Part shown: piece after piece, positions 1 through 14,407 of the stretch
Numbering within the stretch: the stretch's first letter is position 1
Layout of the letters: every line of letters begins with the position of its first letter
From: a virus
Lineage: Duplodnaviria > Heunggongvirae > Uroviricota > Caudoviricetes
Reading direction: 5' to 3' (one strand)
Virus record (IMG/VR): IMGVR_UViG_2874915312_000003
Span: 1 to 14,407 of that record
DNA: 14,407 nucleotides
Notes under the pieces: generated by a model
Databases searched by the model: none
What the model was told of the DNA's origin: nothing
What the model saw: only the letters and a program-made list of their open reading frames with translations
Program-made: the position numbers and the translations under genes

Positions 1-200
1 CACAACATCCGAGGACAGCATCGTCCGCCAGCCTACAGAAGTCCGGAAAGCCATGGAAGGTCGTTGGGAGGAGGTACGAATTCTATCATGCAAAAAATAC
101 GTAAAATCGATAACGCCTAGAAATCATTCAATACTCGCACTATCGAAAGTTTACCAGCCAACCGCGGCACGTTCCTGCATACGACGTGCCGCAGCTTCTG

Positions 201-764
201 TTATTCCACGATAAAATTCCTAACCGAATTCAAATCCTTCAGACTATTCAGCTCTTCCTTCAGCTCCCGCTGACGGCGATAAATCTCATCGTTGCGATCG
301 ACCTGCGCCTGCACCATTGCTGCCGCCAGTTCTTCCAGTTCCGGCATCGACAGTTTCACCTGCTGATTATCGGCATCGCTCCACGCCATATGTGTTTGTG
401 CTGTGACAGATTTTGCCAGCATGACTACCGGGGACAGGCGGCCCAGTGAGTCGGGGCCAGCATTCCAGATACGACCGTTCCATTCAAACGTGAACGGCTT
501 CGCCTCCTGTTCTGTGCGCCATGCTTCAATTCCCTGACGTCTGGCCTCTCTGGCCGCTTCCAGCATTTCTGGTGTCACAGTGAATGGGGCTATCTCACCC
601 CATTTGCCGCTTTGCAGTTCCTGCCAGATTTGCTGACCCGTCGGAGCGACATCATCAGCGGTGGCTGTGTAGGGGACTGCCTGGTCCCTGTCGTCAAAAA
701 AAACGTCACAGTCTACTGCGCCACTTTCGGTATAACGGGGATTAATGATTTTTTTAATTTCCAC
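201..764 (-). CDS. Putative tail fibre assembly/chaperone-like protein (second tfa-like gene, directly 3' of stf)
   Basis: ORF 201..824 minus overlaps the stf stop by 50 nt. An in-frame GTG at 764 preceded by GAGGAA (6-nt spacer) is the likelier start. Assignment rests mainly on position after a tail fibre gene. Confidence 0.4.
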   Translation of the reverse strand: MEIKKIINPRYTESGAVDCDVFFDDRDQAVPYTATADDVAPTGQQIWQELQSGKWGEIAPFTVTPEMLEAAREARRQGIEAWRTEQEAKPFTFEWNGRIWNAGPDSLGRLSPVVMLAKSVTAQTHMAWSDADNQQVKLSMPELEELAAAMVQAQVDRNDEIYRRQRELKEELNSLKDLNSVRNFIVE

Positions 765-774
765 GGTGCATTCC

Positions 775-2043
775 TCACGATGTGCGAATAAAAAGCCCGG
801 GCATTGCGCCAGAGACATGAGCATCCGGCACCCCGGACAGGGCGCAATATGACCCTGGTAATGAATGCTCTGAACATCCCGTAATGAAAAATTGTGGGGA
901 TGCTATATACGTTCCGGTGGGAGTACTGGGCACTGAAATCCCCACCGGTCCCAGTCGTGAGCCTCTGTATGACTGCCCCCTGACAAGTCTGATGACTTTA
1001 TCACCGTCAGCTTCTCCCTGGTACGCAGCAATAATCAGCCCGCCAATGTCAGGGTCTCCCCATCTGTTGCGGACAGAGCTCGCCACGATTCTGTAAATAA
1101 TATCTTCTGTGGTTATATTTATTTTCACCCAGCCAGTCAGTCTGGATATGGGCCAATAGCAGTAGCGGGTGTGATAAATGGGGCCGTTAATGCCGTAAAA
1201 AGTAAGGGATTTGGCTCTGTACCGCGGTTCTGTTGTCTCAGGGCGTGCATCAGTCCACCGGATGCTGAGCACCCCTTCAAACCGTGTGTCGGGTATGATG
1301 ATGCCGTAGGGGCCAGCAACGGAATATTCACCTGGCAGCGCATTCCTTACCCAGGCCAGGAAATCACTCTTAGTGTCAAAACGGATAACATCTTCAGGCA
1401 GAAAAGCACACCCAAAGCCGAATGCGCCGGGTATCGCCAGACGGCCTTTTGTCCGGTCGTAAATGTCGCTCTGTGCTTCCATCGTGGCCGCACTTTTCAG
1501 CCCCAGATTATCCCGGGACTTCTGTTGTGCCTTTTCGCCTGCTGCTGCGATTTCAGACAGATGGTTAGCCGTTTTCAGGGTGCCGGTCAGCGCAGCATCA
1601 ATGTCATTTTTGGCCTGTTCTGCTGCGCGGGCATAACCTGCGGCTGCCGCCACATCCTGCGCCGTCTGCTGTGCGTTTCCGGCTGCGGCCCCGGCGCTCT
1701 GCTGCGCCTGCGCCACCATTTCCTCAAAGCGTTTGACGACATCCGGTTTCAGGTCGCCCTCATCAGGAGCAATCAGAAAGTCATTCAGCGTGCCGGGCTT
1801 TGAGTCCTCATATACAGCAATGTCGCCAACGTTGTACTCGTTGCGCCAGTCCTGTTTCAGATACACACCATATTTTCCAGTCCGCGCATGGAAACAGTAT
1901 TCACCATCGTTTCCTGTCATCACATCAGCAACAGTGTTCATCACCACTTCCGGGGTGTTTACCCGGGATTTCAGAATAATATGGTATCCGGACATGGGGA
2001 TACCTGCGCCATCAGTCAGCGCACCTGATATCACTACAGACAT
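775..2043 (-). CDS. stf: Side tail fibre protein, lambda Stf-like N-terminal domain
   Basis: 422-aa ORF. N-terminus MSVVISGALTDGAGIP...IAVYEDSKPGTLNDFL follows the lambda Stf N-terminal pattern (MAVKISGVLKDG...ITVYEDSQPGTLNDFL) as remembered. Followed by a tfa-like gene. Confidence 0.7.
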   Translation of the reverse strand: MSVVISGALTDGAGIPMSGYHIILKSRVNTPEVVMNTVADVMTGNDGEYCFHARTGKYGVYLKQDWRNEYNVGDIAVYEDSKPGTLNDFLIAPDEGDLKPDVVKRFEEMVAQAQQSAGAAAGNAQQTAQDVAAAAGYARAAEQAKNDIDAALTGTLKTANHLSEIAAAGEKAQQKSRDNLGLKSAATMEAQSDIYDRTKGRLAIPGAFGFGCAFLPEDVIRFDTKSDFLAWVRNALPGEYSVAGPYGIIIPDTRFEGVLSIRWTDARPETTEPRYRAKSLTFYGINGPIYHTRYCYWPISRLTGWVKINITTEDIIYRIVASSVRNRWGDPDIGGLIIAAYQGEADGDKVIRLVRGQSYRGSRLGPVGISVPSTPTGTYIASPQFFITGCSEHSLPGSYCALSGVPDAHVSGAMPGLFIRTS

Positions 2044-2066
2044 TGTTTTTCTCGCGATAAATTAAA

Positions 2067-2612
2067 TCAGGAAGAACCTTCCGGAGAGGCGGGCCATTCA
2101 ATGGCGTTGTATGAGGATTTATCAGTGATGGTGCTGAAATCCATCGCCTGCAGCGATTTCGCGTAAATACGACAGGCTTTCAGCTTTTCTTTATCTTCGT
2201 CGCTGATTAACCCCAGCAGCAGGTCTTCTTCCCATTCCCCTGTCCGGGCACTGACCTGAGCCAGAAGGGCATCACGCTCATCTTCCGCTTTGAGTCTGTA
2301 GTCAAAGACAAATTCATCATTGCGGTAAAACCAGTAACCCGGCGCGGTAATCCGTCGGTTAGCGGTAATATCAGGAACTTCAATAACACTGGCATTGCGT
2401 GGCTCGATGCCTGTCACATCCTTACCGACCCACACCACGCGACCATCTCCGGTGTAAGCTATTTTTATTGTGTCGCTGGCGAAATTCTTCAGCTCTTCAT
2501 ACCAGTTTTTTCCGTCTTCTGAAAAAAGCCAGGTGACCGAATATCGTTTTGTCATCTGATATTGTTCTGCTGTTTTCGGATTACCCGCAGTAATATTTTT
2601 TAAATGCAACAT
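2067..2612 (-). CDS. tfa: Tail fibre assembly protein Tfa
   Basis: 181-aa ORF. N-terminus MLHLKNITAGNPKTAEQYQMTK...WLFSEDGKNWYEE and C-terminal ...IEWP match E. coli prophage TfaQ/TfaR/lambda Tfa as remembered. ATG lies 2 nt after the stop of the upstream fibre fragment. Confidence 0.75.
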   Translation of the reverse strand: MLHLKNITAGNPKTAEQYQMTKRYSVTWLFSEDGKNWYEELKNFASDTIKIAYTGDGRVVWVGKDVTGIEPRNASVIEVPDITANRRITAPGYWFYRNDEFVFDYRLKAEDERDALLAQVSARTGEWEEDLLLGLISDEDKEKLKACRIYAKSLQAMDFSTITDKSSYNAIEWPASPEGSS

Positions 2613-2614
2613 TG

Positions 2615-3265
2615 TTAAATACTCGCTACGTTATACCAGGTGCCATTAATCAGTTTTTGCAGTGGTCGGTAATACACACCGTCAACGTTATCCGCTGAGT
2701 TACGGCCGGGGCTGTAATACATTTCATGGCCATACCGTACATCCTGTACCCCCTCTGTTCGATATTTATAGCGGGCATCGAAGTTTCCGTAATTTAACGG
2801 AATTACCTGTCCGTTAACAGTGAACACTATGCTGTTATCCGGGTTTCTCTGGCTGAAAAAATGCCAGCCTGAATCATCGCCAAGCTCTGCAACAACAGGC
2901 CTGGATGGATTACCCCACAAATAAAACGCTGCATTTTTCGTGGAGTTGTTGGCGCTGGATAACGTGAATTTTCTGACAGTTCCGGCCTGAATATTCTTAA
3001 AAGCAATAGCCACTCCATTCTGAAAGCGGAATACACGCTGACTATTAGCATAAACATCCAGAATACCGTCTCCATTCTGTTTAAATCCGGTGTCATTATC
3101 ACCAAGAACAATTGAATTCCCCCCCAGGGCGTTCTGAACGCCGATACCCAGCGCACCATTGACCTGCGAACCACCGCCAACAGACACTTTATGCGACATG
3201 GATATTTCACCCGTCCGCAAATTAATGGTGAACGGGCGCAGGGGACCAATATCGCCATTATTCAC
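2615..3265 (-). pseudogene. Tail fibre C-terminal (receptor-binding) domain remnant; 5' portion missing
   Basis: 216-codon ORF with Gly-rich tip-like sequence (HKVSVGGGSQVNGALGIGV...), immediately followed by tfa. Begins with GTG overlapping the holin stop and has no fibre N-terminal domain. First in-frame ATG is at 3199. Confidence 0.45.
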
Positions 3266-3473
3266 CTCTCGCAGCCTTACGCTTATCTTCTCTTATTTTG
3301 AAATACAGATTCGTCAGATAAGTCAGAAGCCCCAGAAGCAGACTTCCCAGCACACCAATCGCAGCCCACTGTGATGGACTGACCTGATCCAACCACTGCA
3401 AAAACCAGTAGCCGGCACTGCCGGCGGCGGTGCCGTAGGCAATGCCCGTTGAAATTTTGTCCATGGATTTCAT
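3258..3473 (-). CDS. Holin, lambdoid prophage EssD/EssQ type (71 aa)
   Basis: MKSMDK...[32 protein letters not shown] closely matches K-12 prophage holin EssD as remembered. SD GGAGGTGA sits upstream of the ATG. Hydrophobic core with a charged C-tail. Confidence 0.7.
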
Positions 3474-3633
3474 AGCCTCACCTCCGCAAATAACGGATGG
3501 CGTAGTTTTACACTGAGAAATGAAAGGGATTTGAAAAGAAAAAAACGCAAAAGCGGGCGAAACGATATATACAGTAAGGAAAGCACTCTATCCAACAAAC
3601 CACCCACAGTTAATCGGAATAAAAGCAGAGTGC

Positions 3634-3706
3634 TTATGAATGATCGCACGCCCGAAGGTTAGTATTTCTGCACAGCAATTTTGCAAAAAAAGGCGATCAT
3701 TCATAA
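3634..3706. repeat. Perfect 14-bp inverted repeat, TTATGAATGATCGC (3634-3647) / GCGATCATTCATAA (3693-3706), 45-nt spacer
   Basis: Read directly from sequence, in the tRNA-holin intergenic region. Confidence 0.8.
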
Positions 3707-3713
3707 CTTAAAC

Positions 3714-3759
3714 GTCTTTCAGTCACTCCGGGATTTCCCATCATCGCAGACTGAAAGAC
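3714..3759. repeat. Perfect 11-bp inverted repeat, GTCTTTCAGTC (3714-3724) / GACTGAAAGAC (3749-3759), 24-nt spacer
   Basis: Read directly from sequence, 7 nt beyond the 3' end of tRNA-Gly on the transcribed strand. Confidence 0.8.
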
Positions 3760-3765
3760 TCTGAC

Positions 3766-3840
<75 letters not shown>

Positions 3841-3843
3841 ATA

Positions 3844-3919
<76 letters not shown>

Positions 3920-3921
3920 GC

Positions 3922-3998
3922 TGGCCCACCACCGAGGACTCGAACCTCGCACCGTCAACTTAGAAGGTTGATGCTCTATCCGGATGAGCTAGTGGTGG
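3922..3998 (-). tRNA. tRNA-Arg (anticodon UCU, reads AGA)
   Basis: Reverse complement CCACCACTAGCTCATCCGGATAGAGCATCAACCTTCTAAGTTGACGGTGCGAGGTTCGAGTCCTCGGTGGTGGGCCA. Perfect 7-bp acceptor stem, anticodon loop CTTCTAA, T-loop TTCGAGT. Confidence 0.75.
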
Positions 3999-3999
3999 T

Positions 4000-4076
4000 T
4001 GGTGGCCCTTGCTGGACTTGAACCAGCGACCTGGCGATTATGAGTCGCTCGCTCTGACCAACTGAGCTAAAGGGCC
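4000..4076 (-). tRNA. tRNA with CAU anticodon, ileX/ileY-like (Ile2/lysidine type more likely than Met)
   Basis: Reverse complement GGCCCTTTAGCTCAGTTGGTCAGAGCGAGCGACTCATAATCGCCAGGTCGCTGGTTCAAGTCCAGCAAGGGCCACCA. Resembles E. coli tRNA-Ile2 as remembered. Ile versus Met identity cannot be settled by eye. Confidence 0.7.
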
Positions 4077-4085
4077 GGAGGCAGA

Positions 4086-4114
4086 ATAATAACCATATGT
4101 CATCACATCTGCAA
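4086..4114 (-). promoter_or_regulatory. Candidate sigma70 promoter for the tRNA cluster (-35 TTGCAG, 17-bp spacer, -10 TATTAT)
   Basis: Minus-strand hexamers at 4114..4109 and 4091..4086. The -10 ends about 10 nt upstream of the tRNA 5' end at 4076. Confidence 0.35.
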
Positions 4115-4160
4115 ACTCATCTGACCACCAGCGCGTTTAACGCCCTGTGCCATTTTTCAG

Positions 4161-4188
4161 GCACAAAAAAACCCGCATAAAGCGGGTT
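4161..4188 (-). terminator. Rho-independent terminator (minus strand)
   Basis: Minus strand reads AACCCGC-TTTAT-GCGGGTT followed by TTTTTTTGTG. Lies about 100 nt downstream of the antirepressor stop. Confidence 0.55.
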
Positions 4189-4284
4189 CTTTCAAGTGTC
4201 CATGTCTGCTATTCGCCTCGCGATACAGCTTTGCGGAGCTTACCGGAATTGAAGCAGTTTATGTGCAAAAATGCAAGAACTTTT

Positions 4285-4794
4285 TTAAAGCTGCATCAAC
4301 CTTTCCACCAGTTTATCTCTGCGAACAACAAACCAACCATTGGCTCTCGCCAGTTCCAGCCATGACTCAAGGGAAATAACAATATCATCATCCCGTAACT
4401 GAATTGTGGAAACAGTGACACCGCCTCTCTGATAACAGAGAACTCGCGTGTCGTAACTTTTCTGGCATGAAACTGGCGTTGACGGATCCTTTTGACTGAA
4501 ATAGCAGTCTTCCAGTTTTTCGAACACATCCCACGCCTGATCGGTTTCGAGCATTTTGGCGTGGCGTGCTGCGCCTCGTTCTGTCCAGAGGATGAGGGAG
4601 CGGGCTTTGGGTGAAACTGGATTTTGTGAGTAGTTTAAAGCGACCCGCAATTCTTTAAGGTCATTACCAACAACTTTGAAAAAGTGTTTCCCTTCAACGA
4701 AGCGTACTTTGTTCTCATGATGATTCTGGCGAATACGCACCGGCTCAGTGCCGTAAAGCTGCGCCAAAAGTTCGGTGGTAATAACAGGAATCTG
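4285..4794 (-). pseudogene. ORF6N-domain phage antirepressor-like protein, 3' part (interrupted by IS600)
   Basis: Translation ...IPVITTELLAQLYGTEPVRIRQNHHENKVRFVEGKHFFKVVGNDLKELR...SPKARSLILWTERGAARHAKMLETDQAWDVFEKLEDCYF matches the ORF6N consensus as remembered. The first 47 codons of track ORF 4285..4932 are read out of IS600 and are artefactual. Confidence 0.65.
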
Positions 4795-4837
4795 TGAGGT
4801 GTACTGGCAATAGCGGACACTACCATTTGTTCTTTTT

Positions 4838-5656
4838 TTAAGCAGCCATCTGATGATATTTTTCCCTGAAGGCTGCCAGGGAGATATTCCCCAGACGAGA
4901 GTGACGACGCTGACGATTGTAGAAAATCTCAATGTATTCCCGTATTACTGAGATGGCTTCATCCCGGTTATTAAAACGATAGTGGCTCAGGCTCTCATTT
5001 TTCAGCGTTCCCCAGAAGCTTTCCATCGGAGCGTTGTCGTAACAGTTACCTTTACGCGACATTGATGTTTTCAGACCAAACTGCTCCTGTATGACCCGGT
5101 AATCGTATGCGCAGTACTGTGAACCTCGATCAGAGTGGTGGATTAGCCCGGCAGGTGGGCGCTGGCTCCTGAGCGCCATAAACAGGGCTTTACCTGTCAG
5201 CTCTTTTGTCATGCGCTCTCCCATGGCGTAGCCGACAATTTCGCACGTATAAACATCTTTGATGCCAGCGAGGTACAACCATCCCTCCTGTGTGGCAACA
5301 TACGTCAGGTCCGCCACCCAGACCTGATTTGGTGCTGTAGGAGCGAACGTCTGGTTCAGCAGATTTGGCGCAACTGGCAGATTGTGGTTCGGGTTCGTAG
5401 TCGCTCTGAACTTGCGTTTCTGCTTACAGCGTAGCCTTAGCTCCTTACAAAGACGTGCCAGTCGGTCACGACCAACGATGATGCCATTCTCTGCCAGCTC
5501 CGTCTGGAGCCGCCGGGTTCCATATGTTTCGCGAGTGCGGATATGTGCCACCTTAATCTCCAGTTTTAGCCGCTCATCACTTTGTTTTCTGTCTGAGGGT
5601 TCATGCTGTACCCAGTTGTAATAACCGCTCCTGGATACACCAAATACCTGACACAT
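4838..5656 (-). CDS. IS600 orfB (DDE transposase catalytic part, expressed as OrfAB by -1 frameshift)
   Basis: 272-aa ORF with IS3-family integrase-core motifs (WVADLTYV...HSDRGSQY...NAPMESFWGTLK). Confidence 0.8.
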   Translation of the reverse strand: MCQVFGVSRSGYYNWVQHEPSDRKQSDERLKLEIKVAHIRTRETYGTRRLQTELAENGIIVGRDRLARLCKELRLRCKQKRKFRATTNPNHNLPVAPNLLNQTFAPTAPNQVWVADLTYVATQEGWLYLAGIKDVYTCEIVGYAMGERMTKELTGKALFMALRSQRPPAGLIHHSDRGSQYCAYDYRVIQEQFGLKTSMSRKGNCYDNAPMESFWGTLKNESLSHYRFNNRDEAISVIREYIEIFYNRQRRHSRLGNISLAAFREKYHQMAA

Positions 5657-5691
5657 CGCTTCAATGGGAAATTGTTGTCGCCATTGTTCGA

Positions 5692-5994
5692 TTAACGCGT
5701 ATTTTTCAGCGACTCCTGTGCAAAATACGCTGTTGCTTTTTTTAATATATCTCGCTCAAGGCGAGCTTCATTTAACGCCTTACGCAGTTGCAGAATTTCA
5801 GATTCCAGTTCAGCCACCGTGCGGGAACCAGGAGTACCGAGCCCTTTTCTGGCGGCGGTAACCCATTGTCCTAAAGTGCCTTCAGGAAGAGATAATCGGG
5901 AAGCGCCTTCACTGATCGAAAGTTGATTTTCAAGAACCGTTCTGACAGCTTCGGCTTTGAACTCTTTAGAGTAACGTTGGGTTTTTCTGCTCAT
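5692..5994 (-). CDS. IS600 orfA (helix-turn-helix / leucine-zipper transposase N-terminal part)
   Basis: 100-aa ORF starting 64 nt from the IS end, with a coiled-coil ELESEILQLRKALNEARLERDILKKA typical of IS3-family OrfA. Confidence 0.8.
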   Translation of the reverse strand: MSRKTQRYSKEFKAEAVRTVLENQLSISEGASRLSLPEGTLGQWVTAARKGLGTPGSRTVAELESEILQLRKALNEARLERDILKKATAYFAQESLKNTR

Positions 5995-6058
5995 TATTAG
6001 CTCCTTCTGATGCCATTCTATTTCAGGAAGGAGTGTCCGTTAAACTCAGGCTACCTCA

Positions 6059-6109
6059 CTGGTTATGGGTGATCGGGGAGAGAGTTTCAACAGAGATTTG
6101 AGTGGTCAT
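6059..6109 (-). pseudogene. ORF6N antirepressor-like gene, 5' part (MTTQISVETLSPITHNQ)
   Basis: Frame continues exactly across the IS600 insertion once the IS and one CTG copy are removed (...THNQ|IPVITT...). The ATG at 6109 has GGAG 9 nt upstream. Confidence 0.5.
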
Positions 6110-6272
6110 AACGATAACTCCGTACATTTGGAAATTATCGCCACCGACGACGCCAATCGAACTGGTGGCGAACTGTGCAGGGTTGGCGTAACCGGGTACG
6201 GAAACCGGCGAGCCTTTCGGCTCCCCCACACAGCCCGCCATAAATCGCGAATGTGACTGTGCAAACGATATG

Positions 6273-6294
6273 AAAAAAGACGCGGGCGCGTCTC
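6273..6294 (-). terminator. Candidate tR'-like intrinsic terminator
   Basis: Minus strand reads GACGC-GCCC-GCGTC followed by TTTTTT, about 55-75 nt downstream of the candidate late promoter. Confidence 0.4.
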
Positions 6295-6355
6295 ATATCG
6301 CTCCGTAAACATCCGGGACGCCAATCCCGACGCCAGATTTTGCTGGCGCGTGAGG

Positions 6356-6385
6356 AATATAGCCCCGGATAACAGATTGAGTCAA
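6356..6385 (-). promoter_or_regulatory. Candidate late promoter pR' (-35 TTGACT, 18-bp spacer, -10 TATATT)
   Basis: The -35 hexamer at 6385..6380 overlaps the Q stop codon (TGA at 6384..6382). The -10 is at 6361..6356. Lambdoid pR' sits immediately after Q. Confidence 0.5.
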
Positions 6386-6936
6386 CAAACGGTTTTTAGA
6401 TCCCCGGAAGAGAATGCATCACGCATCGGTAGATAGAGCATATATTCAGCAAGATTTAGCCATACATCTACCCGACTGCAGCACGTCCGGAAACACCACT
6501 CAGGGTGTGCGTCATTCAGCAATTCAGCCATTTTACGCTTAGTCATCCCCCGCCCTTCATACCGTTGCCGGAGGACACTAATCAATCCAGGATGCTCTGC
6601 CAGCACCTCACTTATGACTCTATCAATACATAACGCCTCTGCATCAGTACAATGCGCCAGCCAGGTCTTTTGCTTGCCATTGATCATCTCTCGCAAAAAC
6701 GCTTCCAGCTCAGGTTTCTCTATTCCCGCTTTTTTCATCCTGCGCAGGGCTTCATTGACGGCTGTTTTCGTCAATTTTTTGGATGCCAGCAACTGGTTAA
6801 ACATATTTCCCGCCTTACCGCCGCCAATATACGACCAGCGCCCCCACATGCGCAGTTTTCCCTGAATCCAGACACTTTCCAGCGTGGTGAGACGAAGGTG
6901 TTCCCCGCTTTTGCCTGTATTTGTTGGGTAAATCAT
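6382..6936 (-). CDS. Late-gene antitermination protein Q (Phage_antitermQ-like)
   Basis: Start taken at the internal ATG 6936 (MIYPTNTGKSGEH...), which has SD AAGGAAGG and overlaps the upstream stop as ATGA. Motif LRMWGRWSYIGGG resembles the W-G-x-W segment of Q21/QuuD-type proteins as remembered. Candidate pR'/tR' lie immediately downstream. Confidence 0.6.
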   Translation of the reverse strand: MIYPTNTGKSGEHLRLTTLESVWIQGKLRMWGRWSYIGGGKAGNMFNQLLASKKLTKTAVNEALRRMKKAGIEKPELEAFLREMINGKQKTWLAHCTDAEALCIDRVISEVLAEHPGLISVLRQRYEGRGMTKRKMAELLNDAHPEWCFRTCCSRVDVWLNLAEYMLYLPMRDAFSSGDLKTVC

Positions 6937-7223
6937 AAATAACCTTCCTTTCTCCAGATTTCTTGTGTGCGAAAAACACCTTCTGCATGCATCAGGCGTA
7001 ATTCTTCTTTGGTGTAATCGCTGGTTTTTACCCGCCCGTCGATTAAATCGTGGCATGAGCTACAGGCAATCGCTGCCTGCATATCGTGTGGTTTTGTCGC
7101 TGTTCCGCACGTCCCCGCCAGCCTGTAATGCGCCAGCACAGAAGTTTCGGGATTGTGATTGCAGTAGCCAGGGATTCTGACGGTGCACATCTGCCCCCGC
7201 GCCGCTTTACGTAAATCCACCAT
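6933..7223 (-). CDS. Cys-rich nin-region protein (YbcO/DUF1364-like)
   Basis: 96-aa ORF with spaced Cys/His residues (CTVRIPGYCNH...CGTATKPHD...CSSCHD). Start overlaps the upstream stop (TAATG). Family name is from memory. Confidence 0.45.
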   Translation of the reverse strand: MVDLRKAARGQMCTVRIPGYCNHNPETSVLAHYRLAGTCGTATKPHDMQAAIACSSCHDLIDGRVKTSDYTKEELRLMHAEGVFRTQEIWRKEGYL

Positions 7224-7822
7224 TACGCAAACTCCAGTAACTGCGCGGCCACATTTTCGACTTCCTCCGGAGAGGAAAATTTACGGAACAGGATCCAGTT
7301 CCACAGCACATTCAGTACAGATTTATAAACCTGCTGAAACTCGGTTTCGTCCATGTTCGCAAATGCGATAGATTTTGCCCTGCGCCCACGACTACCATCA
7401 GGATAAATATGCTCGGTGTAAAATCCGGCCTGAATGGTTACCCACTCGCGGAAAGCGTCAAACGACTTTAGCAATGCCGTATCCCGGGTTCTGCATGTCG
7501 CAACTGTATTAAGGTATTGCTCTGCGGCATCACTCAGGGCTGGAGTGTGTTCCCGACCTACTGATTCGCACAGGTAATCAACGAAGCCTGATACCAGTTT
7601 TCGTTCGCGAGGCGTGATCGCCCCACCGACCGGAGTCCAGTAATCAAATCCCAGTTGCAGGAGTTTGAAAAAACGCTTGTGGAATGCGTAGTTACGCACA
7701 CGCTTAAAGTCTGCGTGTATCCACTCACCTATTTTGATTTGATGCAAAAAATCGCAACTCTCCGGCGTCGCCGGGAGAAGTAATCCGGAAGAGGTTTGTT
7801 TGACCAGTTGTATATGCGCCAT
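7223..7822 (-). CDS. Lambdoid nin-region protein (DUF1367-like), unknown function
   Basis: 199-aa ORF, translationally coupled to the next gene, located between the Rem-like gene and Q. Confidence 0.45.
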   Translation of the reverse strand: MAHIQLVKQTSSGLLLPATPESCDFLHQIKIGEWIHADFKRVRNYAFHKRFFKLLQLGFDYWTPVGGAITPRERKLVSGFVDYLCESVGREHTPALSDAAEQYLNTVATCRTRDTALLKSFDAFREWVTIQAGFYTEHIYPDGSRGRRAKSIAFANMDETEFQQVYKSVLNVLWNWILFRKFSSPEEVENVAAQLLEFA

Positions 7823-7955
7823 CGTAGTTCTCCGCTGGCGCAGTAGAATGGGTGTTCAGCCCGTTATGTAGTATACCAGAATTAATGCCAATACTAACAG
7901 GGTAATGCTGCCAACTTACTGATTTAGTGTATGATGGTGATTTTAAGGTGCTTGC

Positions 7956-8231
7956 GTGGCTTCCATTTCCATCAGATGTCCTTCCTGCTCCGCTACTGAA
8001 GGCGTGGTGCGTAACGGCAAAAGCACTGCCGGGCATCAGCGCTATCTCTGCTCTCATTGCCGTAAAACATGGCAACTACAGTTCACTTACACCGCCTCTC
8101 AGCCCGGTACGCACCAGAAAATCATTGATATGGCCATGAATGGCGTCGGATGTCGCGCCAGTGCACGCATTATGGGCGTTGGCCTCAACACGGTTTTACG
8201 TCACTTAAAAAACTCAGGCCGCAGTCGGTAA
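7956..8231 (+). CDS. insA: IS1 InsA
   Basis: [40 protein letters not shown]..., 91 aa. Confidence 0.9.
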
Positions 8232-8653
8232 CCTCGCGCATACAACCGGGCAGTGATGTGATTGTCTGCGCTGAAATGGACGAACATTGGGGCTACGTCG
8301 GTGCTAAATCACGTCAGCGCTGGCTGTTTTACGCGTATGACAGGATACGGAGGACGGTTGTGGCGCACGTCTTCGGTGAACGCACTCTGGCCACACTGGA
8401 GCGTCTTCTGAGCCTGCTGTCGGCCTTTGAGGTCGTGGTATGGATGACGGATGGCTGGCCGCTGTATGAATCACGCCTGAAGGGAAAGCTGCACGTTATC
8501 AGCAAGCGTTACACTCAGCGCATTGAGCGACATAATCTGAATCTGAGACAACATCTGGCAAGGCTGGGACGGAAGTCACTGTCGTTCTCAAAATCGGTGG
8601 AGCTGCATGACAAGGTCATCGGGCATTATCTGAACATAAAACACTATCAGTAA
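8150..8653 (+). CDS. insB: IS1 insB reading frame (expressed as InsAB' fusion by -1 frameshift at the A6C motif near 8207)
   Basis: 167-codon ORF overlapping the insA 3' end. TTAAAAAACTC slippery motif present. Confidence 0.85.
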
Positions 8654-8752
8654 GTTGGAGTCATTACCTACTAACAGGATGTTCTGACTCGCAATTCGGT
8701 AATGCTGCCAACTTACTGATTTAGTGTATGATGGTGATTTTAAGGTGCTTGC

Positions 8753-9028
8753 GTGGCTTCCATTTCCATCAGATGTCCTTCCTGCTCCGCTACTGAAGGC
8801 GTGGTGCGTAACGGCAAAAGCACTGCCGGACATCAGCGCTATCTCTGCTCTCATTGCCGTAAAACATGGCAACTACAGTTCACTTACACCGCCTCTCAGC
8901 CCGGTACGCACCAGAAAATCATTGATATGGCCATGAATGGCGTCGGATGTCGCGCCAGTGCACGCATTATGGGCGTTGGCCTCAACAGGGTTTTACGTCA
9001 CTTAAAAAACTCAGGCCGCAGTCGGTAA
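8753..9028 (+). CDS. insA: IS1 InsA (copy 2; T->R substitution relative to copies 1 and 3)
   Basis: GLNRVLRHL versus GLNTVLRHL in the other copies. Confidence 0.9.
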
Positions 9029-9450
9029 CCTCGCGCATACAACCGGGCAGTGATGTGATTGTCTGCGCTGAAATGGACGAACATTGGGGCTACGTCGGTG
9101 CTAAATCACGTCAGCGCTGGCTGTTTTACGCGTATGACAGGATACGGAGGACGGTTGTGGCGCACGTCTTCGGTGAACGCACTCTGGCCACACTGGAGCG
9201 TCTTCTGAGCCTGCTGTCGGCCTTTGAGGTCGTGGTATGGATGACGGATGGCTGTCCGCTGTATGAATCACGCCTGAAGGGAAAGCTGCACGTTATCAGC
9301 AAGCGTTACACTCAGCGCATTGAGCGACATAATCTGAATCTGAGACAACATCTGGCAAGGCTGGGACGGAAGTCACTGTCGTTCTCAAAATCGGTGGAGC
9401 TGCATGACAAGGTCATCGGGCATTATCTGAACATAAAACACTATCAGTAA
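8947..9450 (+). CDS. insB: IS1 insB frame (copy 2; W->C substitution, DGCPLYES versus DGWPLYES)
   Basis: Direct comparison of the three copies within the window. Confidence 0.85.
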
Positions 9451-9698
9451 GTTGGAGTCATTACCCGCAATTCATCCAGCAGTTTATCATTTCCCATAAT
9501 GTCACTTACCCTCATCGGTAAAAAAATTGCCTTTCGACCATTACGATACATTATTGATTTTGGGGTTTCAGGGAAGTAATCCATTTCGACTATAACTGAC
9601 AGGTCATCACGACGTATGACTGCGTATTTGCTACTAAATAGTTTCTTTATTTTTTCCACGATGCCTCCAGGTTTATAAGTACAAACGGTTATATCCAC
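9444..9698 (-). CDS. Rem-like small prophage protein; last 5 native codons replaced by 6 IS1-derived codons
   Basis: GTG start at 9698. Removing both IS1 copies and one copy of each duplication restores an 83-codon ORF ending ...LLDELRVRTSC, with its stop inside the copy-1 target duplication. Position (upstream of Q and nin proteins, downstream of hokD) mirrors rem in K-12 Qin. Identity to Rem is from memory. Confidence 0.5.
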
Positions 9699-9842
9699 AT
9701 AGAGACAAAAATATTAATCTGAAAAACATTTATTTCACGCCGTATATTTGATTGTTTAATGTGCAAGTACAATGACTTTTATTTTTTGTTGTGTATATAA
9801 TCAAATATATGGTTATTTTTCACCCTGCGTATTCAGCACGCA

Positions 9843-9867
9843 ACAAAAAACCCGCCGAAGCGGGTTT
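9843..9867 (-). terminator. Rho-independent terminator downstream of hok
   Basis: Minus strand reads AAACCCGC-TTCG-GCGGGTTT followed by TTTTGTTG, 68 nt after the hok stop. Confidence 0.7.
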
Positions 9868-9934
9868 AGTGCGGGTGCGTTGAGGATGCCTGACACATGA
9901 GAGGTGGCGAGGGATTTCTCCCCCGCCTGGTCTC

Positions 9935-10090
9935 TTACTCCTCAGGTTCGTAAGCTGTGAAGACAGCGACCTCCGTCTGGCCGGTTCGGATTCGTACCTC
10001 GCAGAGGTCTTTCCTCGTTACCAGTGCCGTCACTATGACGGTTAAACAGATGACGATCAGGGCGATTAACATCGCCTTTTGCTGCTTCAT
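9935..10090 (-). CDS. hokD: Hok/Gef-family type I toxin, HokD (RelF)-like
   Basis: 51-aa MKQQKAMLIALIVICLTVIVTALVTRKDLCEVRIRTGQTEVAVFTAYEPEE matches K-12 HokD as remembered. SD AAGGAG is 8 nt upstream. Track ORF 9935..10147 adds an in-frame 19-codon upstream extension (MSHKCRLASYVPKGKEKQA). Confidence 0.8.
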   Translation of the reverse strand: MKQQKAMLIALIVICLTVIVTALVTRKDLCEVRIRTGQTEVAVFTAYEPEE

Positions 10091-10431
10091 AGCCTGCTTC
10101 TCCTTGCCTTTCGGCACGTAAGAGGCTAACCTACATTTGTGAGACATAGATTGGGCCTCAGATTAATGTTAAGCGTCTTGCAGGACGCGTAATGTTAACT
10201 GGGGCTTTTCTCTGTCTGCCTTACAGTGGCATGCCCGAGGCAGACAGCCTCAAGCACCCGCAGCAATCTTACCGATACCGATAAGAAAACGCTATTTTTT
10301 ATTGCCAGCACCTTCTATCCAGGCTAATTTATCTGCGTCAGAACGGCGCAATGCGCTCGCCTGAGATACGTTTACTTGCCATGGTAACAACAGGTAACGG
10401 CAATTGCTGTTTCTGTTTTGTTTCCTTCAAA

Positions 10432-10456
10432 AACCCCGGACCATCAATCCGGGGTT
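10432..10456. terminator. Terminator-like hairpin AACCCCGGA-CCATCAA-TCCGGGGTT with T-runs on both sides
   Basis: Plus strand is followed by TTTTTGTTTGTT (stronger); minus strand by TTTTTGAAGG. Sits directly 3' of the 27-aa peptide ORF. Confidence 0.5.
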
Positions 10457-10464
10457 TTTGTTTG

Positions 10465-10548
10465 TTAACCCCAACGGCAAATCGAATACACCACCATCGC
10501 CATCGCCATCGCAATTCCTACCGTGGTGAATGCCTCAGGCCAGGTCAT
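10465..10548 (-). CDS. Candidate 27-aa hydrophobic peptide (MTWPEAFTTVGIAMAMAMVVYSICRWG)
   Basis: Not in the ORF track (below size cutoff). ATG at 10548 has SD GGAGGTG (5-nt spacer) and overlaps the stop of the upstream frame as ATGA. TAA at 10467-10465 is followed at once by the hairpin. Contains three tandem GCGATG codon pairs (plus-strand CATCGC x3 at 10495-10512). Confidence 0.35.
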   Translation of the reverse strand: MTWPEAFTTVGIAMAMAMVVYSICRWG

Positions 10549-10906
10549 TGATTCACCTCCTGCGGTGGTTCCGGTAGCGGCATCCAGTGAGTTGAGCTCT
10601 CTACTTCAACGCCGTCTTTGTCCACAAAAGCCATCTTATTCCCGCCACGAGTGGGGCAAAAAACCTTATCCCAGGAACCGGGGAATACATTCCCGAGATC
10701 ATCGAGAAGAATCACATCGCAATATTCAGCAGGAACTGCATCACTACAGCTTATCCAGCTAGAGTTACCGGAGAGTTGCCAGCCTTACGCATGGCCATTT
10801 CCACGATTTCAACCATATCTCCTGGTGGAATTTTACAAAGTTGCCCAATACATTTCTGCTGCCTGGCATATTCGAGAATGTGCTCCAATTTGGTTCGATT
10901 AATCAT
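10545..10906 (-). pseudogene. Gene split into two frames: 51-aa N-terminal ORF (10906..10751) plus 79-codon open frame (10784..10545), probable frameshift
   Basis: Frame A MINRTKLEHILEYARQQKCIGQLCKIPPGDMVEIVEMAMRKAGNSPVTLAG has SD AAGGGAG and overlaps the upstream stop (TAATG). Frame B ...SCSDAVPAEYCDVILLDDLGNVFPGSWDKVFCPTRGGNKMAFVDKDGVEVESSTHWMPLPEPPQEVNQ has no plausible start of its own. The frames overlap at 10751-10784 around a direct repeat AACTCT x2. Confidence 0.35.
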
Positions 10907-11571
10907 TATTTATCTCCCTTAAGCATGGCAGCGCGGCAGGCGTTCCAGCCATCAACATAATCAAACGTATTACTATCGTTTGGCCCGATTTCATCCGGCA
11001 CTATCGGCTCTGGTTGGATAGTGACGTTGGCAAAGGCAGCACGCAAACCGGTTTTAATTTCTTCGATTTCATCAGAGCCAAGCGATGAATCTGACAGTGC
11101 GTGATGGAATGCGTAAGCCATGTCGTCGTTTACTGCAACCGGTACTGCCGGCGCTGCGTAAAGCGGTGTTATATCTGCCCGAAAATCACATGCTTTATGC
11201 AGTCGTACCCAACGCTCAACTTCCGCTTTGTCAAAATATATAGCAGTGAACGTATTAGATTCCTGGTCAACTTGAGTAAACGTCACCTTCCACGCTACAG
11301 CTACGGCTTTCCATCCATCAGGTTGTCGCATTCGCGGGGCAGCATAAAGCTCATGCATTCCATCAGGCAGCGAGTGACCCACATACTCACCGAACCCGTC
11401 AATACACATGCCCCCATCTTCAACAATGCATTCCGCTACAGGCTCTGCTTCCAGTGATGCCAGAGCGATAAGCGCCAGTTCACGAATTTCACCGCCGTCT
11501 ATATCGTCAATATCATCGCGGCCAGAAATGTTAGCCAGCCATTGCAGTCGCTCTTTGGTAATAGTGGTCAT
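10906..11571 (-). CDS. Acidic 221-aa hypothetical prophage protein
   Basis: Long ORF with start overlapping the HNH stop (ATGA). Internal repeat of LYAAP motifs (ELYAAPRMRQPDGWK and ITPLYAAPAVPVA). Confidence 0.5.
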   Translation of the reverse strand: MTTITKERLQWLANISGRDDIDDIDGGEIRELALIALASLEAEPVAECIVEDGGMCIDGFGEYVGHSLPDGMHELYAAPRMRQPDGWKAVAVAWKVTFTQVDQESNTFTAIYFDKAEVERWVRLHKACDFRADITPLYAAPAVPVAVNDDMAYAFHHALSDSSLGSDEIEEIKTGLRAAFANVTIQPEPIVPDEIGPNDSNTFDYVDGWNACRAAMLKGDK

Positions 11572-11933
11572 GCCGTAGCCCCTTCTTGATATTTTTCAAA
11601 CCAGAACACAACCGGGTCAGATTTCATTTCAACCAATCCCATACGAACCAGCGCTTTGCCTTTCCCGGACGCAAGGAATTCACGACGACCATCACTGATA
11701 ATTCGTCGATAATCTTCCAGGCTACTGCAATGCTTGTGCAGATTGCATGGGTGGCATTCTGGTACCATGTTGGATATATCGTCACGTTCCTGGTGAAGCA
11801 TATTTCCATCAAAACGAATGACCGGTTTTACATGGTCTGCATGCCACTTTTCGCCAAGTTCGCAGCCGCAATAAGCGCAGCGACCACCGAACTTAATGCG
11901 CAGTTCTGCACGTTGTTTTTTCGTCAGTGCCAT
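11568..11933 (-). CDS. HNH endonuclease
   Basis: CAYCG...WHADHVKP...NMVPECHPCNLHKH is an HNH / Zn-binding motif. Start taken at ATG 11933 (MALTKKQ...) with SD AAGGAAAG, rather than the track start 12023. Confidence 0.65.
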   Translation of the reverse strand: MALTKKQRAELRIKFGGRCAYCGCELGEKWHADHVKPVIRFDGNMLHQERDDISNMVPECHPCNLHKHCSSLEDYRRIISDGRREFLASGKGKALVRMGLVEMKSDPVVFWFEKYQEGATA

Positions 11934-12189
11934 ATCAGCTTTCCTTATACGGATTAATTTTATTGTGCAGTGTGTTGAATGACGCCCATACCACGTCGTT
12001 ATACAATTCAATAACTGGCTCAATTATTTTTCCGATTATCCAGACAAAAATTAGCGGGGATATCGGTGTCATCAACACGATAAACAGAATGAGAAACAGG
12101 AATTCTGTTGTTCTACTCTTTCGCGGATATTTTTGGTAATGCTGCCAACTTACTGATTTAGTGTATGATGGTGATTTTAAGGTGCTTGC

Positions 12190-12465
12190 GTGGCTTCCAT
12201 TTCCATCAGATGTCCTTCCTGCTCCGCTACTGAAGGCGTGGTGCGTAACGGCAAAAGCACTGCCGGACATCAGCGCTATCTCTGCTCTCATTGCCGTAAA
12301 ACATGGCAACTACAGTTCACTTACACCGCCTCTCAGCCCGGTACGCACCAGAAAATCATTGATATGGCCATGAATGGCGTCGGATGTCGCGCCAGTGCAC
12401 GCATTATGGGCGTTGGCCTCAACACGGTTTTACGTCACTTAAAAAACTCAGGCCGCAGTCGGTAA
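12190..12465 (+). CDS. insA: IS1 InsA (copy 3)
   Basis: Protein identical to copy 1 InsA. Confidence 0.9.
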
Positions 12466-12887
12466 CCTCGCGCATACAACCGGGCAGTGATGTGATTGTC
12501 TGCGCTGAAATGGACGAACATTGGGGCTACGTCGGTGCTAAATCACGTCAGCGCTGGCTGTTTTACGCGTATGACAGGATACGGAGGACGGTTGTGGCGC
12601 ACGTCTTCGGTGAACGCACTCTGGCCACACTGGAGCGTCTTCTGAGCCTGCTGTCGGCCTTTGAGGTCGTGGTATGGATGACGGATGGCTGGCCGCTGTA
12701 TGAATCACGCCTGAAGGGAAAGCTGCACGTTATCAGCAAGCGTTACACTCAGCGCATTGAGCGACATAATCTGAATCTGAGACAACATCTGGCAAGGCTG
12801 GGACGGAAGTCACTGTCGTTCTCAAAATCGGTGGAGCTGCATGACAAGGTCATCGGGCATTATCTGAACATAAAACACTATCAGTAA
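12384..12887 (+). CDS. insB: IS1 insB frame (copy 3)
   Basis: Protein identical to copy 1. Confidence 0.85.
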
Positions 12888-13022
12888 GTTGGAGTCATTA
12901 CCGATATTTTTTTCTAAATAATGTAACCATTCATTACCGCCCTTTCGGGCGGTCTCCTGATGATTTGAGGGTGCAGAAATCCCTCCGGTTAGAGATTAAA
13001 TTTTTAACAGTGCTAAATTTAA

Positions 13023-13248
13023 TTATTCAGTTCTGGATTTTGTCGCCCTGCGTATCCGCGCTTTCGCATTACGCTCAATCTGTATCAGCTTTTCTATATT
13101 TCTCCGCCTTTCCTGTTCCTCCTGGCGCAATAGCCTTACATCATCTGCCAGTCTGGTTTCTCTTTTTGCCACAGAGAGCATCCAGTCAAACGGCTCCACA
13201 ACCGCACCGCAGATTTTACAGCAGACCTGACGCTCTTTTTCGTCAACC
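13023..13248 (-). pseudogene. 3' fragment of an unidentified phage gene truncated by IS911 (...CCKICGAVVEPFDWMLSVAKRETRLADDVRLLRQEEQERRRNIEKLIQIERNAKARIRRATKSRTE)
   Basis: Minus-strand frame is open from the IS911 boundary to a TAA at 13025..13023. Charged, coiled-coil-like tail. No start codon inside the fragment. Confidence 0.25.
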
Positions 13249-13256
13249 TGAAGTGG

Positions 13257-14407
<1,151 letters not shown>

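Follow-up and report, generated by a model that had tools for sequence, protein, structure and literature searches.

The RNA 3'ETS-leuZ is reportedly the 3' external transcribed spacer of E. coli glyW-cysT-leuZ, and RNAs of this type are released by RNase E, bind Hfq and sponge small RNAs. The tRNA cluster of bacteriophage T4 also encodes stable small RNAs, species 1 and 2 (rnaC/rnaD), for which we know of no explanation in terms of function. The put RNA of phages HK022 and HK639 acts on the zinc-binding domain of the RNA polymerase beta' subunit, thereby suppressing termination; it consists of two stem-loops that are about one nucleotide apart and about 70 nt in all (PMC9378689). In lambdoid prophages, the late leader is a source of further small RNAs, namely STnc100/PasD, IsrJ-like RNAs, PasA/PasC and AgvB/AsxR (PMC4104026, PMC8550237, bioRxiv 10.64898/2026.05.13.724894).

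The locus described here lies in a stretch of 14,407 nucleotides (IMG/VR virus record IMGVR_UViG_2874915312_000003, positions 1 to 14,407), which we call the window. The whole window is a decayed lambdoid prophage, and all relevant genes are on its minus strand, in the order Q-type antiterminator, isrK and C4 antisense RNA genes (Rfam), ORF6N-domain gene, strong intrinsic terminator, four tRNAs, a non-coding interval and a class II holin. The interval contains three consecutive RNA hairpins (A, B and C), a linker and a decayed terminator (T2), and the first gene downstream of this module is the class II holin gene, for which the RefSeq annotation of the identical locus was also consulted (Table 1).

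The ORF6N fold is typical of phage anti-repressors, and the gene adjoins an IS3-family element. Past the holin, a 216-aa ORF with no Pfam match is followed directly by tail-fibre genes, and no endolysin gene was found between the holin and the tail-fibre genes in the window. Three IS1 copies, a second IS3-family element and a hok/sok locus are located farther along. Intact relatives have Q followed by a short PR' region, then a strong terminator and, after about 85 nt, the tRNA array, the same interval and the holin/lysozyme/spanin genes.

Table 1. Positions of the features in the window (position 1 is its first nucleotide)
Feature	Position	Strand	Description and basis
Q-type antiterminator gene	6382-7056	minus	DUF1133/Phage_antitermQ
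ORF6N-domain gene	4285-4932	minus
Strong intrinsic terminator	4165..4188	minus	AACCCGC-UUUAU-GCGGGUU-U7; ends the upstream unit
Predicted sigma-70 promoter	4086..4114	minus	-35 TTGCAG (4114-4109), 17-nt spacer, -10 TATTAT (4091-4086)
Four-tRNA array	3766..4076	minus	ARAGORN; Rfam tRNA matches of 56-70 bits; RefSeq identical locus
tRNA-CAU	4000-4076	minus	Met by ARAGORN; Ile in RefSeq relatives
tRNA-Arg-UCU	3922-3998	minus	ARAGORN
tRNA-Thr-UGU	3844-3919	minus	ARAGORN
tRNA-Gly-UCC	3766-3840	minus	ARAGORN
Non-coding interval	3474-3765		292 bp between tRNA-Gly and holin
Hairpin A	3714..3759	minus	11-bp stem, internal loop, inner GGG/CCC stem, variable loop
Perfect 11-bp repeat	3714-3724 / 3749-3759		24 nt between arms; repeat search
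Hairpin B	3634..3706	minus	14-bp outer stem closing a three-way junction
Perfect 14-bp repeat	3634-3647 / 3693-3706		45 nt between arms; repeat search
Hairpin C	3583..3633	minus	8-bp lower stem (GCACUCUG / UAGAGUGC), internal loop, upper stem
Perfect 9-bp repeat	3581-3589 / 3627-3635		repeat search
Linker	3559..3582	minus	AU-rich, single-stranded, from hairpin C to T2; fold
Decayed T2 terminator	3534..3558	minus	GCCCGC-UUUU-GCG, then U7CU4; alignment A1
Holin leader and class II (P21 S-type) holin	3258..3533 (CDS 3258-3473)	minus	Phage_holin_2_1, PF04971, E = 1.2e-34

The module shares its organisation with 3'ETS-leuZ and the T4 RNAs and its genomic niche with the late-leader small RNAs, and the sequence and covariance-model searches described below placed it in no family, so it was classed by kind as a prophage late-leader/tRNA-trailer non-coding RNA. 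Like 3'ETS-leuZ, it immediately follows the final tRNA of an operon in the same orientation, with neither a promoter nor a terminator between, and it would be freed by tRNA 3' processing. An intrinsic terminator closes the module in most relatives, and the terminator stem is only 3-4 bp in the window and about one third of the unique variants. In contrast to 3'ETS-leuZ, the module is about four times longer and highly structured, with covariation in each of its three domains; it lacks a conserved single-stranded seed and is prophage-borne and portable. The likeness to T4 rnaC/rnaD, structured phage RNAs that are co-transcribed with a tRNA array and processed from it, lies in organisation only; T4 is a virulent phage whose cluster is neither beside the lysis cassette nor controlled by Q.

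The late-leader small RNAs occupy the same Q-to-holin slot of lambdoid prophages, and each unit has its own terminator. PasA (PP2) and the module both lie upstream of a class II holin. However, the module has no sequence or covariance-model similarity to these RNAs and conserves helices and loops, not a seed, and PasA/PasC and AgvB/AsxR are encoded on the other strand. With the put RNA of HK022/HK639, the module has in common two adjacent stem-loops upstream of terminators, and HK639 carries both elements. Hairpins B and C abut, comprise about 124 nt together compared with about 70 nt for put, and include a three-way junction (B). The two elements differ in place, since put follows directly after PL/PR (the HK639 putL-like RNA is beside pL), whereas the module is in the late leader, past Q and the tRNAs.

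Searches against known families gave no assignment. Rfam 15 at gathering thresholds had no match in the interval, and at E <= 10 the window returned only noise (sR38 at 12 bits against a gathering value of 50); the copy in HK639 gave sub-threshold matches that were driven by the terminator (istR 26/45, isrB 22.5/35, rsmX 21.7/56). The STnc100 covariance model (RF02076) found no match in the window. The Pas coordinates and probes of EPEC E2348/69 were taken from PMC8550237. With these, the interval was compared by blastn with the PasA/PasD2, PasB and PasC loci and showed only 10-14-nt chance matches, the four Pas Northern probes had at least 8 mismatches with the interval, and a covariance model of hairpins B and C (B+C) did not match the same loci. 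The annotated putL-like RNA of HK639 (34187-34312) was likewise not matched by the B+C model. Literature searches with characteristic sequence strings of the module, and others on external transcribed spacers and prophage small RNAs, turned up no account of the element.

Two other assignments were considered and rejected. Hairpin A shares GAUGAUG with tRNA-Gly, and a decayed copy of that tRNA was dismissed as its origin when the local alignment score was reached in 201 of 1000 shuffles. When the loops were compared by eye with the consensus motifs of the kink-turn, box C/D, hammerhead and boxA, they fitted none of them, and Rfam gave no support for any.

An earlier note on this DNA, made by reading the sequence, had reported a 14-bp repeat with a 45-nt spacer and an 11-bp repeat with a 24-nt spacer within about 290 bp of noncoding DNA. 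A repeat search reproduced both exactly, within the 292-bp interval, and detected a third perfect repeat of 9 bp. The two noted repeats supply the principal stems of hairpin A (11 bp) and hairpin B (14 bp). In dinucleotide-preserving shuffles of the interval (perfect inverted repeats with a loop of 3-60 nt), arms of at least 11 bp occurred in 11 of 2000 shuffles and arms of at least 14 bp in 1 of 2000, so the three repeats together are far beyond chance. The note was also correct that no T-run follows either repeat and that they are not canonical terminators: the sequence has no such U/T run on either strand, and hairpins A, B and C all lack a U run directly after them. Folding of the minus-strand RNA, a check that it had proposed, gave three consecutive hairpins with an MFE of -89.1 kcal/mol and z = -4.07, compared with z = -1.9 for the plus strand. 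The third hairpin, the closing terminator, the promoter before the tRNAs and the widespread distribution of the module are absent from that note.

In the sense of the late operon, hairpins A-B-C run from 3759 to 3583 and form a structured module of about 180 nt. Hairpin A starts 6 nt past the CCA end of tRNA-Gly, and its asymmetric internal loop, UGCGAUGAU / GGAGU, is conserved in sequence. Inside hairpin B, the junction holds an 8-bp hairpin (UUUUUGCA / UGCAGAAA, with a 9-nt loop) and a short CC-UUCG-GG hairpin. Hairpin C directly abuts hairpin B with zero spacer, and the 3' strand of its upper stem, GGGUGGUUUGUUGGAU, is nearly invariant in relatives. Folded singly, the three hairpins gave -22.5 kcal/mol (A, z = -4.83), -24.4 kcal/mol (B, z = -3.23) and -20.2 kcal/mol (C, z = -4.54). 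The linker sequence differs between subfamilies, as judged by comparison of the downstream sequences.

Homologues were retrieved with patterns of two exact loop stretches, so the conservation of these two loops is partly an ascertainment effect and is inflated; the stems, hairpin C (including GGGUGGUUUGUUGGAU) and the terminators were outside the patterns. Hairpins B and C were aligned using MAFFT (alignment A2, 31 non-redundant sequences, 41 pairs), and RNAalifold recovered the same helices as the single-sequence fold at -35.06 kcal/mol, with compensatory double changes at 11 of the 41 pairs. Standard pairs made up 97.6% of the cells, compared with 92.5% after shuffling of partners, and the covariation score was 0.268 compared with 0.179 (0/500 shuffles in each case). 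When partners were slid by 1-3 columns, only 36-51% of cells could pair. Shared ancestry of the relatives means that the shuffle controls overstate independence, and the slide controls and the strand asymmetry are unaffected by it.

In hairpin B, helix 1 (14 pairs) was 96.8% paired with compensatory changes at 5 pairs, and helix 2 (8 pairs) was 99.6% paired with U:A<->U:G and G:U<->G:C changes. In hairpin C, helix 4 (8 pairs) was 98% paired with compensatory changes at 5 pairs, and helix 5 (9 pairs) was 97% paired. A separate alignment of hairpin A (A3, 25 sequences) had 95.8% of cells paired, compensatory changes at 4 stem pairs and a covariation score of 0.193 compared with 0.138 for shuffled partners (0/500), and slid partners paired at no more than 54%. 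All helices of the module thus covary. The earlier note had named loss of the repeat arms in related prophages as evidence against its observation; in the relatives, the arm sequences vary and the pairing stays.

The alignments also discriminate between the strands. Across the 41 pairs of A2, there were 157 G:U cells, which can pair only in the minus-sense RNA, compared with 12 A:C cells, whose pairing would require the opposite sense, and RNAalifold of the reverse-complemented alignment gave -11.1 kcal/mol compared with -35.1 kcal/mol for the sense strand. These two results disfavour both a DNA operator or palindrome and a convergent small RNA. A-B-C is very probably an RNA structure kept by selection in the tRNA-operon/late transcript. 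Among the options raised by the earlier note, a tRNA-processing structure or a small RNA is therefore retained, at the RNA level and in the tRNA/holin sense, and an operator is disfavoured by the compensatory changes and the G:U pairs.

In the window, 9 nt separate the -10 element of the predicted promoter from the first tRNA (mature 5' end); a consensus scan read this promoter as TTTGCA-18-TATTAT. Among 121 unique upstream regions, TTGCAx, a distance of 17 nt and TATTAT/TATCAT are kept 8-9 nt before the first tRNA, and the spacer sequence and flanks diverge widely. Judged from this comparison of sequences, the conserved hexamers and spacing bear the signature of a genuine sigma-70 promoter. 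The consensus terminator scan did not call the strong terminator that precedes this promoter, and its identification is based on the sequence and the fold (-19.0 kcal/mol, z = -5.95). In position, this terminator corresponds to tR' in relatives with Q directly upstream; an equivalent terminator between Q and the tRNAs is present in two relatives (L001 and L002), and one is annotated in HK639. The conserved promoter and this strong upstream terminator give the tRNAs, A-B-C and T2 the appearance of a self-contained operon within the late leader.

In most relatives, T2 reads GCCCGC-UUUU-GCGGGC with a U run after it and lies a short distance before the class II holin gene. A canonical terminator was found 10-39 nt past hairpin C in 57 of 93 unique sequences, and the stems have several unrelated sequences (for example GCCCGC/GCGGGC, CCUCGC/GCGAGG and GGCUGCG.../...GUGGCC). 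Within the E. coli subtype, the T2 alleles are constant in length, and their 3' arms GCGGGC, GCGGGT, GCGGTT and GCGTTT correspond to a stem that shrinks from 6 to 3 bp. The folding energy is -13.7 kcal/mol for the 6-bp allele, -6.6 kcal/mol for the 4-bp allele and -3.3 kcal/mol for the 3-bp allele of the window, which is the weakest. Since T2 is weak (4-bp or 3-bp stem) in about one third of unique relatives and in the window, a sharp 3' end of the module is not universal. The HK639 record annotates the terminator of its module at 44715-44736.

The 292-bp interval occurs in 530 of 5426 complete E. coli genomes (about 10%), mostly at 95-99% identity, and is unannotated there; the interval of E. 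coli CFSAN029787 is 100% identical. Searches with the two exact loop patterns listed at least 120 IMG/VR contigs among their matches, and representatives of E. coli, Shigella flexneri, Citrobacter sedlakii, Enterobacter hormaechei, Yokenella regensburgei and Phytobacter ursingii were also matched. Part of the HK639 late leader matches a divergent subtype of the module at 99.6% identity. In the whole genome of this phage, the B+C model had a sole match (44569-44720, 165 bits), and the model also matched the Salmonella prophage Fels-1 at 73 bits. No module matches were found in Stx phages, which together with the prevalence of about 10% suggests that EHEC Sakai is without the module.

The neighbours of the module vary on both sides. 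Most copies follow tRNA-Gly(UCC) and others follow tRNA-Val, Thr, Lys, Met or Glu; the tRNA ends 18-79 nt before the hairpin B anchor in 84 of 102 unique relatives. Some copies are without hairpin A, and hairpin B then begins 1-3 nt past the CCA end. B, C and the terminator are also placed after small moron ORFs on the same strand. Downstream, different relatives have different holins, and in HK639 the module is directly upstream of an STnc100 gene (RF02076, 52.6 bits) that has its own terminator, with one further terminator between the STnc100 unit and the lysis genes. The module is thus portable and always forms the 3' end of whatever separates the Q antiterminator from the lysis cassette.

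The explanation that we consider best for these data is that the three-hairpin RNA is the 3' trailer of a prophage tRNA operon and is released as a discrete RNA, to which we assign a probability of roughly 50%. It is possible, though on balance somewhat unlikely, that A-B-C is instead an element acting purely in cis to process or stabilise the tRNA-lysis transcript, with no separate functional RNA. The helices would then be RNase III-type cleavage sites or barriers that uncouple tRNA maturation from the lysis mRNA, the tRNA precursor would be shielded from 3' exonucleases, and a 5'-terminal hairpin would stabilise the holin mRNA. Such an element would account for the conserved helices equally well, and the position of hairpin A, or of hairpin B in some relatives, within a few nucleotides of the CCA end agrees with it. 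Long helices of 11-16 bp with internal loops may be compatible with an RNase III signal, and T7 and lambda provide known examples of phage RNase III sites that contain internal loops. Because Q-modified polymerase would read past T2, the hairpins would also come to lie in the 5' part of the lysis mRNA. However, processing sites do not need three multi-helix domains with conserved sequence (such as GGGUGGUUUGUUGGAU in C and the internal loop of A), and a cis element fits poorly with the retention of a terminator of its own in most contexts, the recruitment of unrelated terminator sequences, and copies that follow protein-coding morons or precede a small RNA gene instead of a holin. A device acting at the level of transcription, in which the nascent hairpins either boost termination at T2 or, like put, make the polymerase resistant to terminators, is improbable. 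Two abutting stem-loops, B and C, upstream of one to three terminators would suit it, and the module-bearing HK639 record does annotate a put-like antiterminator RNA elsewhere; but the B+C model matched neither that RNA nor any other part of the genome outside the module, B+C is about 124 nt compared with about 70 nt for put (PMC9378689), the module is far from the promoter-proximal put site, and module-bearing phages encode Q, which already provides late antitermination.

We regard a convergent, plus-strand prophage small RNA of the PasA/PasC or AgvB/AsxR type as very improbable. PasA of EPEC E2348/69 does lie in the corresponding interval, immediately before a class II holin, and convergent small RNAs at the PR' moron site were reported by Tree et al. 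(PMC4104026). However, sequence similarity to PasA, PasB or PasC and covariance-model matches in their loci are lacking, the plus strand folds poorly (z = -1.9; -11.1 compared with -35.1 kcal/mol in the alignment), G:U cells far outnumber A:C cells (157 compared with 12), and neither the scan nor the sequence provides a terminator on the plus strand. Equally remote is a role of the palindromes in DNA (operator, recombination site or cruciform) or a small protein gene. The arms are perfectly palindromic in the window copy, but those of relatives are not palindromic as DNA, because many G:U pairs work only in the minus-sense RNA; the arm sequences vary and the pairing is kept. As for a protein, a plus-strand hypothetical protein of 43 aa is annotated in phage vB_EcoS-689R5. 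Across the family, no ORF keeps its position or length, and the T-run inside hairpin B varies from 5 to 9 nt among relatives, so this protein is unlikely to be real.

Under the trailer reading, the operon would comprise, in order, the sigma-70 promoter, tRNA-CAU, Arg, Thr, Gly, A-B-C and T2, with the holin next. In the lysogen, A-B-C would be co-transcribed with the tRNAs from the tRNA promoter, and T2 would keep this transcription out of the holin gene; during lytic growth, Q-modified polymerase from PR' would transcribe the tRNAs and A-B-C. Maturation of the tRNA 3' end would cut A-B-C away from tRNA-Gly, and the freed trailer may persist as a stable discrete RNA of about 200-230 nt, with its 5' end guarded by hairpin A and its 3' end by T2. 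It would then act through its folded conserved loops by binding a protein or an RNA, and not through a linear seed. The linker, which is the usual place of a seed, is unconserved, while the helices, the loop of A and GGGUGGUUUGUUGGAU are conserved; this pattern makes a structure-dependent activity, if there is one, more likely than a seed-dependent one, and any role in trans would not be that of a typical Hfq small RNA. A more specific proposal, which we put forward only tentatively and consider rather unlikely, is that A-B-C represents a new class of structured phage RNA from tRNA operons, a folded protein-binding or structure-dependent effector and neither a seed-pairing small RNA nor a processing site. 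The copy in the window may no longer be functional as a unit, even if the family is, since the prophage is defective and T2 is decayed. Overall, a new family of tRNA-operon trailer RNA is the best reading of the sequences, from which its function is inferred.

The short Q-to-lysis interval of lambdoid prophages is densely filled with tRNAs, toxins and small RNAs that affect the host, and the module adds a widespread member to this interval. It is missing from Rfam and from genome annotation, and some phage records mis-annotate a 43-aa protein in its place. The results also suggest that a prophage tRNA array is an operon in its own right, with a conserved promoter of its own, in which case the terminator before the holin would matter for survival of the lysogen. 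If the effector proposal is true, the module could have a role in host RNA processing, tRNA-directed defence or lysis timing. If a stable RNA is indeed formed, it would be a tractable counterpart, in temperate phages, to the RNAs of the T4 tRNA cluster and a ready candidate for RNA-protein interaction screens.

A motif of the form TTGCAx-N17-TATTAT/TATCAT, ending 8-9 nt upstream of the first tRNA, was found in prophage tRNA arrays (121 unique upstream regions). The spacers of these promoters diverge while the architecture stays, which implies that the arrays would be autonomous operons downstream of tR', the terminator following the late promoter PR', and not merely passengers on the PR' late transcript. 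The predicted promoter and the other features discussed here are listed in the table.

Features in and around the late region, with their positions and basis
Feature	Position	Strand	Basis
Predicted promoter of tRNA array	4086-4114	minus	motif and spacing kept in relatives
Terminator T2, RNA module/holin junction	3534-3558	minus	sequence comparison with relatives, folding
HK639 late leader	2264-3147 of L184 (L184 = HK639 42018-47242)
IS1 copies (InsA + DDE_Tnp_IS1)	7898-8653, 8695-9450, 12132-12887	plus
Second IS3-family transposase	13257-14096	minus
hok/sok toxin-antitoxin locus	9935-10259	minus	sok, 118 bits
C4 antisense RNA, isrK and c4-a1b1 target element	6161-6362	minus	Rfam
Second tRNA of array, tRNA-Arg UCU	3922-3998	minus	compared with relatives
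Holin-to-tail-fibre segment	775-3265	minus
43-aa 'hypothetical protein'	L002 (phage vB_EcoS-689R5) 2761-2892 = window 3531-3662	plus	phage-record annotation

Downstream of the tRNAs, the three-hairpin A-B-C RNA module is separated from the holin by the intrinsic terminator T2. Four T2 alleles of the same length occur in the window and its relatives, GCGGGC, GCGGGT, GCGGTT and GCGTTT, with stems of 6, 5, 4 and 3 bp, respectively; the 6-, 4- and 3-bp stems fold at -13.7, -6.6 and -3.3 kcal/mol, and the weakest allele is that of the window. This series looks like either a stepwise G-to-T decay or a tuning of terminator strength. Some phage records place a 43-aa 'hypothetical protein' opposite hairpins B and C, in the antisense direction; it is probably a mis-annotation, because no conserved ORF was found at this site across the A-B-C family.

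The late leader of phage HK639, which also carries the module, spans about 950 nt and is built of RNA units in series, each closed by a terminator. An isrJ-like PR' leader (34.6 bits, under the gathering score) is followed by tRNA-Asn, a 3' tRNA-Gly fragment, the A-B-C module, STnc100 and one more terminated segment ahead of the lysis genes.

In the window, the gene after the holin is a 216-aa ORF that lacks a Pfam match; tail-fibre assembly and tail-fibre genes come immediately after it. The order in relatives is holin, (ORF), lysozyme and Rz. No endolysin or spanin was found in the holin-to-tail-fibre segment; the lysis cassette is truncated, and the prophage is therefore defective. The three IS1 copies are near-identical to one another, and two of them are almost tandem (797 bp start to start). 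With the second IS3-family transposase added, this number of insertion sequences would be in keeping with a prophage region that is Shigella-like or in some other way strongly degraded.

Directly downstream of the Q-like gene (6382-7056), Rfam detected C4 antisense RNA (77.6 bits), isrK (75.6 bits) and c4-a1b1 (52.2 bits), a combination that reads as an antisense control module of the P1/P7 ImmI or Gifsy IsrK type. Further downstream lies an ORF6N-domain gene (4285-4932) that directly borders an IS3-family element (4838-5994).

The array's second tRNA has a single scaffold, CCGCCACTAGCTCATC...GGTGGCGGTCCA, in which the anticodon loop varies among prophages. UUU (Lys) is the commonest anticodon in relatives, UCU (Arg) is that of the window, and AAA and UUA also occur; some copies have shortened, odd anticodon loops. 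On this scaffold, UUA would read a stop codon. The second tRNA is thus a fixed body with a switched anticodon, and the switching might serve codon supply or help to escape anticodon nucleases.
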